A stretch of DNA of 64,000 nt, taken from a virus. This document shows positions 4,296-64,000 of this stretch, piece by piece. Under the pieces are notes generated by a model. The model had not been told where the DNA came from and searched no databases. It saw only the letters and a program-made list of their open reading frames with translations. The stretch covers positions 45,630-109,629 of the IMG/VR virus record IMGVR_UViG_3300046787_000129. One strand, given 5' to 3'. Made by a program: the position numbers and the translations under genes. Each line of letters begins with the position of its first letter. Position 1 is the first letter of the stretch.

Positions 4296-7200
4296 ATGGC
4301 TGATATTCAGTCCAATATTAATGTAAACATTGATACTACAAATGCATTAGCAAGTATCAAGGCTTTACAGTCACAGATATCAGCCTTCCATACATCTATG
4401 GCAAGGGGCGGAGCCCAAGCAACATCTTCGCTTGCCCAGCAACAGCAGAAGCTTCTAGATGGCATTAATGCAACTGGAAAGTTTTCGGCACAAGTACAAA
4501 ACATTAAGACTACTACCGAGTCTTTTACCACAGCACTAGAGAAGAACAAGCTCTCTCTAGGACAATACTTTAAATACTCCGTAGCATCTACCAAGTCATT
4601 TGGTAGCATGTTCAAGACAGAGATGAACGTCGTCGAGAAGGTAGCTCGTGAAAGAGTAAAGAGCCTTCAGACTCAATACATCAATCTAGGCCGTGATGCA
4701 AATGGTGCATTAAAGGCTATATCAATTAGACCGCTTCTTCTTGATCTAGATAACATGCAGACTAAGACTGCATTGGCTGCTCAAAAGCAGCAGATCCTCA
4801 ACCAGTTGCTACACCAGGGATCTACAAATCTTCTAAACTTCGGTAAGAACACTCAGTGGGCTGGTCGTCAGCTCATGGTTGGTTTTACTATTCCTCTATC
4901 TATGGCAGGTACAGCAGCAGCTAAAGCCTACATGGACATGGAAAAGGCTGCTATCAAGATCAAGCGTGTCTACGGAGACCTAAATACTAGTGTTAAAGAG
5001 ACCAACCAGGCTGTAGATGCTATCAAGAGCCTAGCTGCAGAGTATACAAAGTATGGCATTGCAGTAGCTGACACCATGGAGATGGCTGCATCTGCAGCTG
5101 CTATGGGTAAGACTGGTGCAGACCTTCTTGCACAGGTAAACCAGGCAACTCGCCTAGCCGCTTTGGGTGGGGTGGAACAAGCTCAGGCCCTAGAGACAAC
5201 AATCTCTCTAACAAGTGCATTTGGACTATCTACAGAGATGCTTGCATCTAAGATTAACTATCTTAACGCTGTTGAAAACCAGACCGTAACATCTATCGAA
5301 GACCTTACCATTGCCATTCCAAAGGCTGGTCCAGTTGTCAAGCAACTTGGTGGAGACGTAGAGGACCTAGCATTCTTCCTAACCGCTATGCGTGAAGGTG
5401 GCATTAATGCATCTGAAGGTGCTAACGCACTAAAGTCTGGTCTTGCAGCACTTATCAATCCAACTGGCAAGGCATCAGAAATGCTTGCTGGATTTGGCAT
5501 TAATATCAAGGCAATCGTTGAGGGTAACAAGGGTGACCTAAAGAAGACTGTTATTGACTTCGCTACAGCCCTAAACACCATTGACCCACTAAACCGTGCA
5601 CGTGCCATTGAGCAAATGTTTGGCAAGTTCCAGTTTGCACGTATCTCTACATTGCTTCAGAACGTAACTGCCAGCGGTAGCCAAGCATCTAAGGCTCTAG
5701 CCCTAGCAAACATGTCTTCAATTCAACTTGCTGCAATGTCACGTAAAGAGTTGGACAGAATTTCTGCATCACCAATGTACAAGTTCCAGAAGGCTATTGC
5801 AGACCTTCAGGTAAAGATTGCTCCAGTTGGAGAAGCCTTCCTAAAGGCAGTAACTCCAATTATTGGATTTGTATCTAAGATGCTGGATGGTTTCAATGGA
5901 ATGAGCGACCAGTTCAAGAACTTCACAGTTATTGGTGTTGCGGTTCTTGGTGGACTTGCTCCAGTACTTCTAATGGTTGTTGGTCTTGTTGCTAATGGTG
6001 CTGCAAACATCCTCAAGTTCCTGACCCAAATAAAGTCATTCTTTAACAAAACTTCTGCAGGACAGAAGGACCTAGGTTCAAGCACAAGCTACCTAACTAC
6101 TGAGCAGATTAAGGCCGAAGCTGTAGCAGCTTCTCTAGACCAGATTCACGGAAAGCTAAAGCAGACATTCACTTCTGAAGCAGGAGCAGTTGACTCGCTT
6201 ACTGGTGCATACCAGAGATACCTAGCCGCTACTGGAAAGTATTCGGCACCAGCAGCAAAGGCTGCCCCAGGACTATTTACGCCAGTTGTCAGCAAGGCAA
6301 AGGGCTTTGCTACTGGAGGAATGGTTCGAGGCCCAGGCAGCGGTACGTCAGACTCAATCCCTGCAAACCTATCTAATGGCGAAGCAGTAATTGATGCAGA
6401 AACAGTAGAAAAGAATCCAGCCATCATCGCAGCACTATTTGCTGGTAAGACAATCAGTATTCCTGGATACTCTAGAAACAACTCTAGAGACATTGCAAGC
6501 TCTAGAGATTATGCAAAATTTAGAACATACACCGATGCAACATCTGGATTATCTAGTGGAGCTAACTCGGCACTAAACACTGGAACGGCATCACCATCAG
6601 ATATAGCAAGAGAGTATACTACATCACCTACTAGAATTCAGGGTCCACTAATTGCCGCAGTTGCATCCGAGCTAACTGGTGCAAACACACAGTCTCAGAT
6701 AGATCAGGCTATTAAGAATAACCCAGAAATACTTTCATATGCAAAAAGCCTAAGCCTCGGTATCGCTAGTGAAGTAAGCAAGATAACTGCAAAGACTATG
6801 GGGGACCCAGAGTATACTGGTGCAGTAGCTAAGGCAAGGGCAGACATAAAGGCATCTCCAGAGATCGCAGCCGCATCTGAAAAGTTCTTTACGGAACCAA
6901 GCACATATGAAGATGACACAATCGAAAGAAAGCGTTCGAGCGGCAGATATGTCGCCGCTGGCCGTGAAAAGCTTCGTGCCATGGGGGCAAGATATACCGC
7001 ACTTTTTAAGAGGGGTATGAGAGTTGCAAAAAACTTAAACGTGGATGAGCCACAGCTAGTAGATCCATCAGCAGCACACATGACATCTCCAAGAGATATG
7101 TCCGTATCTGAAATGGATGAATCTGGAATGATGCTTGGAGAAAATGCCCAAGCAGCCCGTGACCGCAAAGCAAAGAATGAAAAGCTTGTCTACAAGCAGG

Positions 7201-43031: not shown

Positions 43032-43463
43032 ATGAAAATATGCGTTAGATGTAATCAGGAAAAAGAATTAGAGCTTTTTGCCAAAGGTAAAAACTATAAA
43101 GATGGAAGACGTGGCACTTGTAAGCAATGTCATTCTAACTATATGGTGGAGTATTACAATAATAACGATGAACAAAGAAAAATTAAAAATAAGATAAACT
43201 CTGGCAAAGATTTTAATTGGAAAAGGCATCGTATTTCTAAAGAATTATTTGAAGAGATGGTTGCAAAATTTGATGGCAAGTGTTATACTTGTAATATAAA
43301 TAAGGCTACAAATATAGACCACGATCATTCTTGTTGTTCTGGACAAAGAAGTTGTGGTAAATGTATTCGTGGCATACTTTGTAGTCAGTGCAATACGGCT
43401 TTGGGATTAGTTAAAGATTCCAAAGAAGTATTACAAAATTTAATACAATATTTAAGCAATTAA
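43032..43463 (+). CDS. Endonuclease VII-type HNH nuclease, probable free-standing homing endonuclease
   Basis: N-terminal CxxC/CxxC; CYTC...IDHDH...IRGILCSQCNTALG; visibly more AT-rich than neighbours. Confidence 0.85.
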   Translation: MKICVRCNQEKELELFAKGKNYKDGRRGTCKQCHSNYMVEYYNNNDEQRKIKNKINSGKDFNWKRHRISKELFEEMVAKFDGKCYTCNINKATNIDHDHSCCSGQRSCGKCIRGILCSQCNTALGLVKDSKEVLQNLIQYLSN

Positions 43464-43467
43464 ATAT

Positions 43468-43538
43468 TGCCCTATAGTTAAAAGGCATAACGAGCGGCTG
43501 TTAACCGCTGATTCTTGGTTCGAGTCCAGGTGGGGCAG
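43468..43538 (+). tRNA. tRNA-Asn(GTT)
   Basis: TGCCCTA/TGGGGCA acceptor; AGCGG-CTGTTAA-CCGCT; TTCGAGT T loop. Confidence 0.92.
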
Positions 43539-43560
43539 CTAATAACTAAATAGAGATCTT

Positions 43561-43634
43561 ATCAGAGTAGAGCAGTTAGGAAGCTCGCCAGGCTCATAAC
43601 CTGGAGGTCGTAGGTTCAAATCCTACCTCTGAAA
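43561..43634 (+). tRNA. tRNA-Met(CAT), initiator-like
   Basis: CCAGG-CTCATAA-CCTGG; 1:72 A/A mismatch; A11-U24; TTCAAAT T loop. Confidence 0.85.
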
Positions 43635-43645
43635 CTAATGGTTCC

Positions 43646-43682
43646 GCTTGCACCACTTCCAGGGTATGGGATAAAAGCAAGC
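43646..43682 (+). ncRNA. Compact pseudoknot-forming spacer element
   Basis: GCTTGC/GCAAGC, ACC/GGT, loop TTCCA pairing with TGGGA. Confidence 0.4.
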
Positions 43683-43685
43683 AAT

Positions 43686-43756
43686 GCGAATGTTGCATAG
43701 TGGTAGTGCCCCATCCTTCCAAGTTGGTGGTGCGAGTTCGATTCTCGCCATTCGCT
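43686..43756 (+). tRNA. tRNA-Gly(TCC)
   Basis: GCGAATG/CATTCGC acceptor; CTTCCAA loop; U73. Confidence 0.92.
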
Positions 43757-43916
43757 CTATAGGCTAATCACCTATACGCATGAGGAAGTTGTTAAATTTC
43801 TCGGTTCTAAGTGACTTTATACTTAGCGTGTAGGTAATCTCACGATATAGGTTCGGGGCTGGTCACCTGTCTTACGGAACGACTCAGGGATATAGATCTG
43901 ATTAATCTGATATCCC
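43757..43916 (+). ncRNA. Unassigned structured RNA
   Basis: ACCTATACGC/GCGTGTAGGT stem enclosing two hairpins; GGGATAT/ATATCCC hairpin; no credible ORF. Confidence 0.45.
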
Positions 43917-43920
43917 ACCT

Positions 43921-43987
43921 GGATAGATGGTGTAATGGCAACACAGCATTGATCAGCAAGTTGGGAGTTCGACTCTCCCTCTGTCCA
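43921..43987 (+). ncRNA. tRNA-like RNA with truncated anticodon arm
   Basis: GGATAGA/TCTGTCC acceptor, GTGT/ACAC D stem, GGGAG-TTCGACT-CTCCC T arm; only 18 nt between D and T arms. Confidence 0.75.
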
Positions 43988-43990
43988 CGA

Positions 43991-44083
43991 CTTATGTCTG
44001 CGGTTCGTAATTGTTCAGCACCTCGAAAGAGATTAAGCCATAAGCCATCAAGGCTCGCCAGAGCCCGTGTATGCGAATCTGGC
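43991..44083 (+). ncRNA. Unassigned structured RNA (three-way junction plus pseudoknot)
   Basis: CTTATG/CATAAG, CTC-GAAA-GAG, GGCTC/GAGCC with GCCAGA/TCTGGC. Confidence 0.4.
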
Positions 44084-44087
44084 ACTA

Positions 44088-44161
44088 GGCTTCATAGCTC
44101 AATTGGTTAGAGCACCGCCCTGTCACGGCGGAGGTTGACGGTTCAAGTCCGTTTGGAGTCG
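44088..44161 (+). tRNA. tRNA-Asp(GTC)
   Basis: GGCTTCA/TGGAGTC; CCGCC-CTGTCAC-GGCGG; G73. Confidence 0.93.
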
Positions 44162-44329
44162 CTCGAAGCATAGGTCTGAACAACTTATGTGTAGATCGTA
44201 TATCTGAAGATTACACTGTTCCAGCCGTGGAGTGAAGGCGTTCAGGCCCACAGACTTTGTGTTGAAGCGAGAACTAGGATATACAGCCAGTAGGAATGAA
44301 CCCTTAACCAAAAGGTGACCATGACTGGC
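44162..44329 (+). ncRNA. Unassigned structured RNA
   Basis: GCATAGGT/ACTTATGT hairpin whose loop CTGAAC pairs with GTTCAG; GCCAGT/ACTGGC stem. Confidence 0.45.
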
Positions 44330-44333
44330 AAAC

Positions 44334-44405
44334 GCCTCCTTAGCTCAGTGGTAGAGCAGCTCACTTGTAATGAGCAGGTCGTCAGTTCAATCCTGACAGG
44401 TGGCT
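44334..44405 (+). tRNA. tRNA-Thr(TGT)
   Basis: GCCTCCT/AGGTGGC; GCTCA-CTTGTAA-TGAGC. Confidence 0.92.
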
Positions 44406-44434
44406 CTGAAACAATTAAATAGAAGGAGGAAATC

Positions 44435-45310
44435 ATGGCCAAGGCACAATTTCCAATTGACGGCAAACTCGGAAAAGATTTTAAAGTCACCTCACTAATG
44501 GGTTATAGAATTCACCCAGTTAAAAAAGTAAAGAAGCACCACAACGGTACAGACATCTGGTCTCCACATGAGCCATGCTGGATCGAAGCTCCATATGACT
44601 GTGTAGTCTTGGAGGCAAAGAAGTCAACTGCACCTGGCGGTGGCTTTGGTAACTATGTAGTTATCCTAATGAAGATCAATGGCAAGTTCTATACTTCGCT
44701 ATTTGCACACATGCAGGATGGCTCTATCAAGGTTAAGAAGGGTCAGAAGATCCCTGCAGGAACTCCACTTGGTAAGATGGGCACTACTGGTATGTCTACT
44801 GGTAAGCACCTCCACTGGGAGCTTCGTCTTGGAAAGGTTCACACCTGGAACGACACTGGCAAGGACTACATTGAGCCTATTGGCTTCTTCAAGGCTCTGA
44901 TTGCTATGGAGGCTTCTATTGCCTCTGCTCCAGTCCTTGGAAACGATACCGTAGTTGCACCAGCACCTACCCACAATGCAGCAACAGCTGCAAAGGTAGA
45001 GGCTGAACGCAAGGGTATTGCTCCAGCAGCTAAGCCTGCTGCTAAGCCTGTGGTTAAGCCAGTTGCAAAACCAGCAGCTGTAGCAAAGCCAGTAGCTGTT
45101 GCCTCTGCAAAGCCTGCCCTAAAGGGAGAGCTTAAGCTAGGAACAAAGAATGGTCTTGTAACTTACCTACAGAAGTCTCTAAAGGTGACTGGAGATGTTG
45201 CTGGAACCTTTGGGCCAAATACAGCGAAGGCAGTGTCAGCACTACAGAAGGCTAATGGGCTGAAGGCTGATGGAGTTGTTGGTCCACTAACTTGGAGTAA
45301 GATTAAATAA
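44435..45310 (+). CDS. Endolysin: M23 peptidase plus peptidoglycan-binding domain
   Basis: HNGTD, GFGNYV, GTTGMSTGKHLHWE; AKP linker; FGPNTAKAV...DGVVGPLTW. Confidence 0.93.
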   Translation: MAKAQFPIDGKLGKDFKVTSLMGYRIHPVKKVKKHHNGTDIWSPHEPCWIEAPYDCVVLEAKKSTAPGGGFGNYVVILMKINGKFYTSLFAHMQDGSIKVKKGQKIPAGTPLGKMGTTGMSTGKHLHWELRLGKVHTWNDTGKDYIEPIGFFKALIAMEASIASAPVLGNDTVVAPAPTHNAATAAKVEAERKGIAPAAKPAAKPVVKPVAKPAAVAKPVAVASAKPALKGELKLGTKNGLVTYLQKSLKVTGDVAGTFGPNTAKAVSALQKANGLKADGVVGPLTWSKIK

Positions 45311-57826: not shown

Positions 57827-57903
57827 TCTTCCAGCTGGGGATCGAACCCAGATGTCACCAATTACTCTTTCTACACCTTATAAGAGTGAGGAGATACTGG
57901 AAG
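57827..57903 (-). ncRNA. Rearranged tRNA-like RNA with UAU anticodon-like loop
   Basis: CTTCCAG/CTGGAAG acceptor and CTGGG-TTCGATC-CCCAG T arm perfect; no D arm in normal position; CACT-CTTATAA-GGTG arm followed by AATTGGT. Confidence 0.75.
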
Positions 57904-60464: not shown

Positions 60465-60556
60465 TAGTTACAGTGGGATTCGAACCCACGCCTCCCCTAG
60501 TCATCTGCTGCATACAGTTTATAGACTATGGCGTACTGCCCCTATACTATGTAACT
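60465..60556 (-). ncRNA. tRNA-like RNA with expanded anticodon domain
   Basis: AGTTACA/TGTAACT acceptor, GTAT/GTAC D stem, GTGGG-TTCGAAT-CCCAC T arm; 43 nt between D and T arms without a canonical 7-nt loop. Confidence 0.72.
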
Positions 60557-60558
60557 TG

Positions 60559-60635
60559 TGGCATGTCAGGGAATCGAACCCTTCTAACCTATGGTACAGG
60601 ATTTACAGTCCCGTGTCTGTCCCAGCAGCCATGCC
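60559..60635 (-). tRNA. tRNA-Tyr(GTA), non-canonical core
   Basis: CGGGA-CTGTAAA-TCCTG; ACC-ATA-GGT variable arm; short D arm; mismatches at acceptor/T junction. Confidence 0.7.
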
Positions 60636-60746
60636 TTGTGCACCTTAGCCTAACCCAGATAGGTGCCACATCTGTAATAGTTTTTACTAGTATTACTATT
60701 AAGGAGTCATAATGCTTTCGCAACATAGGACTATTCCTGGTGTTCG

Positions 60747-62250: not shown

Positions 62251-62505
62251 ATGGCACAGCTACTCAAGGCAAACAAGCCTACGAGTCTTACCTGTATGCA
62301 CAACCTAGACTACGAGATGGACTGGGATGGCGATGAGTATCTATATAAAGTAGATCTGGATAAGCGTTACATTGACCACCTCGAACGATCGGGGTATCGT
62401 ATGCACAGGCTGGTACCAGAAATCCTAGTATGGAATAAGTCACTAGACTTCCAAACTATATATATTGCACGTGCAGAAGACTTTGATGAAGTGGAGATGT
62501 TTTAA
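62251..62505 (+). CDS. Hypothetical protein
   Basis: ATG 62251; coupled to next gene. Confidence 0.5.
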   Translation: MAQLLKANKPTSLTCMHNLDYEMDWDGDEYLYKVDLDKRYIDHLERSGYRMHRLVPEILVWNKSLDFQTIYIARAEDFDEVEMF

Positions 62506-62990
62506 TGACTGTATTCTTAATTAGCGATACTCACTTTGGCCACGCTAATATTGTTAAGTATGCAGAGCGTCCATTCGATACCGTTGAAGAAATGAACGAG
62601 GTAATGGTTGATAACTGGAATAGTGTTGTTAAGCAAGGTGACAAGGTATATCACCTTGGAGATGTCACTATGAACTCTAAGTCATTAGATATCCTATCAC
62701 GACTAAATGGTCGTAAGGTATTGATCAAAGGCAACCACGATATTCAGAAGCTAAAGTTTTATACTCCACACTTCTACGATATTCGTGGTAGTCACGAACT
62801 AGATAACTTTATCTTAACTCACATTCCTGTTAGCGATACCCAGAAGTTGCGGTATAGGGGAAACATTCACGGACACACTCACGAGAAGAACCTACAAGAT
62901 CCTTGGTACTTTAACGTAAGTGTAGAACAAATCAATTACACACCAACAGCATTTGATGAAATAATTAAGGATATACGATGGAACAAATAA
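62505..62990 (+). CDS. Calcineurin-like metallophosphoesterase
   Basis: SDTHFGH, HLGD, GNHD, THIP, HGHTH. Confidence 0.92.
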   Translation: MTVFLISDTHFGHANIVKYAERPFDTVEEMNEVMVDNWNSVVKQGDKVYHLGDVTMNSKSLDILSRLNGRKVLIKGNHDIQKLKFYTPHFYDIRGSHELDNFILTHIPVSDTQKLRYRGNIHGHTHEKNLQDPWYFNVSVEQINYTPTAFDEIIKDIRWNK

Positions 62991-64000
62991 CCAATAAACT
63001 ATTTAACTGGGCATCTATTCTAGATGAGAAAACACTTGAGCAGGCTAAGACTACTTCGTCAATGCCGTTCATTTTCCCACACCTAGCACTGATGCCAGAT
63101 GCACACCTTGGTAAGGGGTCTACTGTTGGGTCAGTAATTCCTACACAGGGAGCCATTATGCCTGCTGCAATTGGGGTAGACATTGGCTGTGGAATGATGG
63201 CTATTAAGACTAACAAGAATGTACACGACATAGAGGGTGTAAACCTTAAGGAATTGCGTGAGTCAATTGAGTCTGCTATTCCACTATCAGCTTTTAAGCA
63301 TAATCAGACAGTTAAGCCAGATGCACTTGATGCAGCAGAGGAACTGCTTGACGCTGCCCTAGACGCTGGGTTTAATCCATCAGACTATGCGAGTAACTGG
63401 ACGCACCAGCTTGGATCTCTTGGTTCTGGCAATCACTTTATTGAGATTACAGTGGATGAGGAAAACTCTATCTGGCTATTCTTGCACTCAGGCTCTCGTG
63501 GAATTGGTAACAAGATTGCTACACATCACATTGCTGTTGCACAGGAATATGCAAAGAAGAACTTCATTACCCTGGTAGATCCAGACCTAGCGTACCTTGT
63601 AGAAGGCACTGTAGAGTTCGATCGCTACATCGCTGAGATGACTTGGGCACAAAAGTTTGCTTTTAAGAATCGTGAAGTAATGATGAGTCGTGTCAAGAAG
63701 GCATTTAAGCATCACGTTGGTGATTTCGAAATCATTGAAGAGATTAACTGTCACCACAACTTTACTCAGCCTGAGAATCATTGGGGCAAGAATCTGTGGA
63801 TAACTCGTAAGGGTGCTATCTCTGCTAATGAAGGACAGATGGGTCTTATTCCAGGTTCAATGGGTACTGCATCGTATGTAGTTGAAGGACTTGGTAATAA
63901 GCTTTCGTTCTGCACTGCACCACATGGTGCTGGGCGTGAATACTCTCGTAATGAAGCACGAAAGGTCTTTACAAAAGAGTCCTTAGATGATATGATGAGA
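62978..64000 (+). CDS. rtcB: RtcB RNA ligase (3' truncated by window, absent from ORF track)
   Basis: Translated by hand: MEQITNKL...LMPDAHLGKG...GVDIGCGM...LGSLGSGNHFIE...HSGSRGIG...CHHN...RKGA...IPGSMG...APHGAGR. Confidence 0.96.
   Translation, partial: MEQITNKLFNWASILDEKTLEQAKTTSSMPFIFPHLALMPDAHLGKGSTVGSVIPTQGAIMPAAIGVDIGCGMMAIKTNKNVHDIEGVNLKELRESIESAIPLSAFKHNQTVKPDALDAAEELLDAALDAGFNPSDYASNWTHQLGSLGSGNHFIEITVDEENSIWLFLHSGSRGIGNKIATHHIAVAQEYAKKNFITLVDPDLAYLVEGTVEFDRYIAEMTWAQKFAFKNREVMMSRVKKAFKHHVGDFEIIEEINCHHNFTQPENHWGKNLWITRKGAISANEGQMGLIPGSMGTASYVVEGLGNKLSFCTAPHGAGREYSRNEARKVFTKESLDDMMR

Follow-up and report, generated by a model that had tools for sequence, protein, structure and literature searches.

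A conserved tRNA-like RNA with a truncated anticodon arm in a phage tRNA array, a candidate processing mark between folded RNAs

A 67-nt tRNA-like gene, referred to as element X, was found in the tRNA array of a phage; judged by comparison with related sequences, it is clearly a real, conserved RNA gene held by purifying selection, and it is probably a remodelled copy of a phage tRNA-Gly(UCC). In the reading that we favour, and for which we regard the chances as roughly even, X would be a functional, non-decoding cutting mark derived from a tRNA, by which the folded RNAs flanking it receive exact ends. Phage tRNA genes are usually read only as spare parts for codon usage or anti-defence. Here a tRNA gene appears to have turned into a non-decoding RNA and then to have stayed almost unchanged while the adjacent neutral sites became saturated, and it is located exactly at the borders of conserved folded RNAs, manA included. 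The window, that is, the whole stretch of DNA analysed, comprises the last 64 kb (64,000 nucleotides) of a 109,629-bp IMG/VR record (42.9% G+C, estimated complete). The parts of X in the window are as follows.

43921..43987 (+), element X, from the 5′ strand of the acceptor stem through the discriminator A73; Rfam tRNA score 44.2 bits, nine homologous variants
43921-43927 and 43980-43986 (+), acceptor stem GGATAGA/TCTGTCC, 7 bp with one U-G included
43930-43944 (+), D arm GTGT-AATGGCA-ACAC, 4 bp, loop AAUGGCA with G18 and G19
43945-43962 (+), stretch between D and T arms, 18 nt, AGCATTGATCAGCAAGTT
43946..43957 (+), anticodon-arm stub, G27-C43 and C28-G42 (both invariant) enclosing the 8-nt loop AUUGAUCA
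43963-43979 (+), T arm GGGAG-TTCGACT-CTCCC (GGGAG-UUCGACU-CUCCC as RNA)

Read directly from the sequence, X is a cloverleaf in which the acceptor stem, D arm and T arm are intact, as the first-pass annotation had stated. The linker between the acceptor stem and the D arm is U8 G9, the discriminator A at 43987 is followed by C74 at 43988, and CCA is not encoded. The Rfam tRNA model RF00005 (gathering score 29) matches X over the full model (positions 1-71) with 44.2 bits and an E value of 4e-6 for the 64-kb window, which places X among canonical tRNAs by score. In this alignment the 13 central positions of the anticodon arm are represented by 8 nt between two G-C pairs; the D and T arms are separated by 18 nt where 22-23 nt are normal, leaving a stub of 2-3 bp with an 8-nt loop, flanked in the window by A26 (43945) and A44 (43958). 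The thermodynamic fold is the same cloverleaf with a 2-bp stub, so that sequence, alignment and fold all agree with the earlier description of an 18-nt interval and a stem of about 2 bp. A search of X on the + strand at E values up to 10 returned no Rfam family besides tRNA, and ARAGORN called five neighbouring tRNAs and left X uncalled.

The 7-bp acceptor, the D arm with G18G19 and the 5-bp T stem with a UUCRA loop are present in X and in all nine variants. The nucleotides of the tRNA core are kept in the variants as well (U8-A14, A15-U48, G18G19 with the UUCGA T loop, and U54-A58); their roles in tRNA are established, A15-U48, for example, being a Levitt-type pair. What X lacks is the canonical anticodon arm with its 5-bp stem and its 7-nt loop carrying U33, the anticodon and a purine at position 37. 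The earlier claim that X is unable to decode can be inferred with good support from the 2-3 bp and 8 nt found in 9/9 variants, with no conserved register of U33 or anticodon. It is extremely improbable that X is a working decoder with an unusually short anticodon arm: the cloverleaf shape alone speaks for it, and, besides the dimensions of stem and loop, the would-be anticodon positions differ by lineage, whereas the true orthologous tRNAs of the arrays keep their anticodons.

Relatives of the locus were gathered via the neighbouring peptidase, three DNA patterns in the viral collection, one metagenome pattern and one species-genome pattern. X was recovered with the same stub from 17 other contigs of several metagenome datasets, and the alignment comprises nine distinct sequences, in all of which the stub reads GC-N8-GC. 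The pair 26-44 is G26-C44 in four variants and U26-A44 in three, giving a 3-bp stub, which is also seen in the fold of the L059-type X; the exceptions are A26.A44 in the window and G26.A44 in L057. A purine-purine combination at 26-44 is the usual one in tRNAs. All stem cells are paired across the nine variants (162/162), against 43-64% in slid controls. The changes in the stems are compensatory, with U-G, U-A or C-G at acceptor pair 4, A-U or G-U at acceptor pair 7, and G-C or U-A at pair 12-23 of the D stem. The T arm is identical in all variants save loop position 59. In the stub loop the first positions vary and the palindromic UGAUCA is retained in four of the five loop types, and in the L006 lineage the loop has been changed to AAGGAACG with nothing else altered. 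A coding reading is ruled out by two 1-nt indels among the variants, one in the D loop and one in the variable loop. When the window is compared with its relatives, X is 84-88% identical, whereas the peptidase gene next to it has only 38-48% identity, near saturation, at its four-fold degenerate sites; it follows that X is under purifying selection.

A covariance model of X, run against 42 other sources and five whole relative records, yielded no more truncated members, the next-best matches being ordinary tRNAs. With 4-24 nt permitted between the GC clamps, a gapped pattern returned the 8-nt form only, together with two unrelated matches, and a pattern of the T arm and 3′ acceptor with the stub unconstrained returned only the stub variants of X, plus an unrelated full tRNA (L061) and a stretch in L060. 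The similarity of the X acceptor to that of the L061 tRNA was considered as a sign of kinship and dismissed, being forced by the search pattern. No cellular copy was found in 185,579 species genomes with a pattern spanning the stub, and DNA and protein searches of the phage collection for cultured relatives gave only generic tRNA matches or distant endolysins.

These data bear on the possibility that X is a decaying pseudogene, an assembly artefact or a recent deletion without function, which we consider very unlikely. In its favour are the missing ARAGORN call and the real tRNA-Gly that occupies the same slot in L019. Against it, assemblies made independently from several metagenomes show the same stub, the nine variants contain no stem-breaking substitution, and X is far more conserved than the adjacent neutral sites. 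The four-fold-site identity of 38-48% shows that the contigs do not belong to one clonal population. A full arm in close relatives, which the first-pass annotation had named as the outcome that would overturn its view, was looked for and found in none of the relatives that carry X; the real tRNA-Gly sits in the X slot only in a more distant phage without X, and this speaks for ancestry rather than error. On recurrence, intact stems and selection, we reject recent deletion, assembly error and a dead pseudogene alike.

The array in which X lies, with its two bordering genes, is laid out as follows.

43032-43463, endonuclease VII-like gene, bordering the array before tRNA-Asn
43468..44406 (+), one-strand array: Asn, Met, 50-nt hairpin module, Gly, A1, X, spacer, Asp, module C, Thr
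43636-43685, 50-nt hairpin module D (also L006:3843-3891 and L056:3299-3346)
43686..43757 (+), genuine tRNA-Gly(UCC), likely the parent type of X
43758..43920 (+), upstream spacer RNA, module A1, 163 nt, conserved in L042, L062, L063 and the X-less L019
43988-44087 (+), spacer between X and tRNA-Asp, 100 nt
43991..44044 (+), folded element in that spacer, 54 nt, with a homolog in L062 (84% over 58 nt)
44088..44162 (+), tRNA-Asp(GUC), the next tRNA unit after X
44163-44333, module C, 171 nt, between tRNA-Asp and tRNA-Thr, no Rfam family match
44435-45310, M23 peptidase/PG-binding (endolysin-like) gene, bordering the array after tRNA-Thr

The origin of X is indicated by its slot. In the window, L042 and L062, X comes after module A1, whose counterpart in L019, a locus in a complete, X-less relative with terminal repeats, is 76-78% identical; there A1 and the same 4-nt leader are followed by a genuine tRNA-Gly(UCC). 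The alignment of A1 between the window and L019 continues into X and tRNA-Gly, respectively. The tRNA-Gly(UCC) genes of the clade (L019:1739-1810, L018:1680-1751 and L020:3659-3730) occupy the slot after A1 as X does, and share with X a near-identical D arm (UAGUUUAAUGG[C/U]AAAACU) and T arm (GGGAGUUCGA[C/U]UCUCCC). The inner G-C and C-G pairs of the Gly anticodon stem align with the GC clamps of X, the Gly arm being UCUGC-CUUCCAA-GCAGA and that of X GC-N8-GC, and within the clade tRNA-Gly(UCC) is the best non-self match of the X model. Given nearly identical D and T arms in the same slot, X probably derives from tRNA-Gly. Both X and a working tRNA-Gly are present in the window and in L056. 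The acceptor stem, in contrast, is wholly different, with discriminator A in X and U in Gly, and no close match to it was found among the tRNAs of the clade.

In bacteria, the identity set of GlyRS consists of C2:G71, G3:C70, U73, C35 and C36. X carries none of these elements, having G2:C71, A3:U70 and A73 and no anticodon. That X might instead receive an amino acid from a synthetase indifferent to the anticodon, and donate it off the ribosome, is a reading to which we attach very little probability. X does keep an intact acceptor stem with A73, an A15-U48 pair and a G18G19 elbow, and a minimal tRNA-Leu without an anticodon arm is reportedly chargeable by E. coli LeuRS, a point that we count in favour of charging. 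On the other side, X shows neither G3:U70 (Ala), nor a long variable arm (Ser), nor G-1 (His), and its neighbours are the endonuclease VII-like gene and the M23 peptidase/endolysin gene, no transferase gene being identified beside it.

The flanks of X match those of the real tRNAs in the array, with a hairpin and 4 nt before and C74 without CCA after. Upstream, the terminal hairpin of A1 (43887-43916), which has four compensatory pairs, ends 4 nt 5′ of X, and a hairpin ending 4 nt before the X slot was seen in each upstream module type examined (in the window, L042, L006, L057, L019 and L063). Downstream, the closing stem of the 54-nt element reads CUUAUG/CAUAAG in the window and CUUACA/UGUAAG in L062. 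The structured RNAs that the earlier reading had placed on both sides of X are present as conserved folded RNAs. On the + strand, no promoter-like site was detected inside the array, and the only terminator-like site, none being convincing, was the anticodon arm of tRNA-Asn.

The arrays of the clade are mosaics of tRNAs and of modules A1, A2, D (50 nt), C (171 nt), E (178 nt) and manA RNA (RF01745). These modules shuffle among phages, normally with a tRNA unit on each side and a closing hairpin ~4 nt before the next unit. X always adjoins non-tRNA modules: it is followed by manA, 6-7 nt downstream, in L041, L042, L048, L049, L055, L057, L059 and L064, by module E in L006 and L038, by module D in L054 and L056, and by the 54-nt element in the window and L062. 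X itself is not a manA RNA and does not match RF01745, and a search of window positions 43400-44450 at E values up to 10 gave no RF01745 match.

Several of the modules show features of their own. Module C is 79-84% identical in L002, L056 and L057 and ~74% identical in a partial match in L049, and its compensatory pairs were seen in three aligned rows. Module D covaries in its stem (GCUUGC/GCAAGC vs UCCAUGC/GCAUGGA), keeps the loop ACCACU..GGGUAU..GAUAAA, and always stands directly between two tRNA or tRNA-like units. The manA RNAs at L042:5585-5766(-), L057:226-407, L018:1497-1678 and L063:2800-2980 are discrete units of phage tRNA arrays; manA starts 6-7 nt past a tRNA or tRNA-like unit and, in four cases delimited by Rfam, ends 0-19 nt before the next tRNA. 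In these arrays manA thus looks like an excised RNA rather than the 5′-UTR element of its original description.

How X could act as a cutting mark follows from its anatomy. RNase P and RNase Z read the tRNA elbow and measure the distance to the cleavage site (PMC11693755). X has kept the determinants of processing, namely the 7+5 bp acceptor/T stack, the elbow of D loop and T loop, and A73 followed by C74, and has lost the anticodon arm and the Gly identity elements; its elbow, its 12-bp stack and its C74 match those of the array's real tRNAs, so that it combines elbow and stack with the lack of a decoding arm. It also lies directly at the ends of other RNAs, with the A1 hairpin 4 nt before it and the 54-nt element or manA 3-7 nt after it. 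We propose that the array is transcribed as a single precursor, in which a cut by RNase P at the 5′ end of X would leave the upstream folded RNA with a 3′ end made of the hairpin and 4 nt, and a cut by RNase Z or an equivalent after A73 would give the downstream folded RNA, the 54-nt element in the window or manA in many relatives, a free 5′ end. X would thereby serve as punctuation where two non-tRNA modules have no real tRNA between them, and the excised 67-nt RNA would be a by-product or perhaps have a second role. The first-pass annotation had suggested a processing tag used by RNase P and RNase Z; its fit to anatomy and context has held up, and cleavage by the two enzymes is the part that we infer.

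A second element is found in the same type of slot. In L063, a minihelix termed X′ (L063:2735-2793) fills the junction between A1 and manA, X lying elsewhere in that array, and a longer version (L062:2136-2213) lies inside the spacer between X and tRNA-Asp. X′ consists of a 6-bp acceptor-like stem, GGACUN/NAGUCC, with a following A, and of a T-like arm with the loop UGCAAYU (UGCAACU in L063), and it is followed by CAAACAG. No Rfam match was obtained for X′. The occurrence of two unrelated tRNA-like elements in one type of slot is the strongest contextual argument for punctuation.

Three considerations weigh against this reading. First, the near-invariant T arm, the GC...GC clamp and the UGAUCA loop seem, from the alignment, to exceed what a structural tag alone would need, for which reason a trans-acting role as mimic or decoy is kept in view; the two roles are not mutually exclusive. 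Second, the X of L064 does not separate two modules. In this locus X (5179-5247, minus strand) is the first gene after a TATAAT-like site ~60 nt upstream, and the apparent self-contained unit made up of this site, X, manA and an A/U-flanked terminator-like hairpin runs through ~350 nt downstream, after which come a TTGACA-like site and tRNA-Asp. Third, real tRNAs already punctuate elsewhere in the arrays, and the keeping of a crippled tRNA lacks an explanation. A stricter rule, that every module is bounded by a tRNA-like unit, was also considered; it is true of most arrays, X′ filling the junctions in L063 and L062, and is in doubt for L064, in which manA is followed by a 156-nt stretch with no evident tRNA-like unit.

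A possible, though tentative, alternative is that the phage produces X for a role of its own, either that of a stable tRNA mimic acting in trans, which would bind or titrate a factor recognising the acceptor end or the elbow, or that of a partner of manA. Its target might be, for example, a host anti-phage tRNA toxin, and the array would be the place where the phage keeps its RNA genes. Conservation beyond the need for pairing (T arm, GC clamp and, in four lineages, the palindromic UGAUCA loop) speaks for this reading, and so do the L064 unit in which X and manA lie between a promoter-like site and a terminator-like hairpin, the further conserved non-canonical tRNA-like genes of the same genome, and an RtcB RNA ligase encoded beside a phosphoesterase.

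62505-62990 (+), calcineurin-like metallophosphoesterase gene, overlapping the RtcB gene
62978-64000 (+), RtcB RNA ligase gene, cut by the window end

Together the two resemble an RNA-repair pair. Both near-complete genomes that bear X (that of the window and G001) have RtcB, which the complete, X-less G004 lacks (n = 3); this distribution is compatible with tRNA damage as a pressure, although three genomes prove nothing and the co-occurrence may reflect relatedness only. Also against a mimic, it has no known target, anticodon nucleases read the loop that is absent from X, and the L006 lineage exchanged the stub loop without any other change. More doubtful still is the specific form in which X would be a purpose-built, anticodon-less L-shaped RNA that titrates an anti-phage factor alongside RtcB, or acts together with a co-transcribed, cage-forming manA; the palindromic UGAUCA loop could allow loop-loop pairing of X. 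Pairing of the stub loop with neighbouring modules was rejected, since the loop type (UGAUCA vs AAGGAACG) is independent of upstream A1 or A2 and of downstream manA, E or D. Both loop types could pair, through 5-nt complementarities, with adjacent pieces of the 3′ tail of 16S rRNA, and both contain codons of the array's tRNA-Gly and tRNA-Asp. Being short and post hoc, neither feature is counted as evidence.

Among known systems, the closest functional analogues of X, by analogy of form and position, would be mascRNA/menRNA and the t-elements. The tRNA-like mascRNA and menRNA, from the 3′ ends of vertebrate MALAT1 and NEAT1, are RNase P and RNase Z substrates that do not become aminoacylated (PMC11693755). 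Like X, they have an acceptor/T stack and a GG-T-loop elbow and no usable anticodon loop, and their cleavage defines the end of a neighbouring functional RNA, as that of X would do. They are eukaryotic and have no sequence kinship to X, and mascRNA has a reduced D arm and lacks linker residues, whereas X has the full tRNA core and is truncated in the anticodon arm alone. The t-elements of plant mitochondria (PMC1920247) are tRNA-like processing signals for the ends of neighbouring RNAs in polycistronic transcripts, as we propose for X; they flank organellar mRNAs, whereas the RNAs on either side of X are folded non-coding RNAs of a phage tRNA array, and X is much nearer to a canonical tRNA.

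The closest phage precedent for a mixed cluster of tRNAs and non-coding RNAs is that of T4 with RNAC and RNAD, small stable RNAs within the T4 tRNA region whose roles are still not known (PMC3014915, PMC9697503). X is likewise an RNA gene in a same-strand phage tRNA cluster, and the two arrays are the same kind of mixed operon, but RNAC and RNAD seem better matched by the spacer modules A1, C and manA than by X. The manA motif (Rfam RF01745; PMC2864571) stands immediately 3′ of X in many relatives; within these arrays it is immediately preceded by a tRNA or tRNA-like unit, and most of the arrays have a further such unit close behind it. Since manA RNAs are reported to assemble into closed RNA-only cages (preprint 10.64898/2026.07.01.735769), the tRNA machinery could provide exact manA ends if ends matter for cage assembly, which the preprint does not state. 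A full-text literature search found no description of a selected tRNA-like gene with a truncated anticodon arm in phage arrays. If the punctuation reading is true, it would account for the way in which bacteria cut out such RNAs with exact ends, X would be a bacterial or phage counterpart of mascRNA and of the plant t-elements, and the ‘pseudo-tRNAs’ of phage annotations would merit a second look. X also offers a simple handle on mixed tRNA/ncRNA operons, which have been unexplained since RNAC and RNAD of T4.

Some further features of the phage concern its tRNAs. Most tRNA units of these arrays, X included, end in the discriminator, a C and a non-C base; CCA is encoded in few, in relatives, and no phage CCA-adding enzyme (PF01743) was found. 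The 3′ ends without encoded CCA point to a host that matures its tRNAs by endonucleolytic 3′ cleavage and CCA addition. Three more tRNA-like genes lie on the minus strand of the window. A 77-nt tRNA-like RNA at 57827-57903 has perfect acceptor and T arms and a rearranged middle, and it is 95% conserved in the relative L047 (13420-13494). The 92-nt tRNA-like gene at 60465-60556, whose anticodon/variable region is expanded, scores 46 bits with Rfam and is reported by ARAGORN as tRNA-??? with a 2-nt ‘anticodon’; it had no homologs in the fetched loci. At 60560-60636 lies a probable tRNA-Tyr(GUA) of class II whose D stem has 3 bp; in the window ARAGORN missed it and it stayed below Rfam's threshold. 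It is 95-99% conserved in L038, L042, L047 and L058, and in L059 a tRNA-Tyr(GUA) that ARAGORN does call occupies the same place in the array, behind tRNA-Glu.
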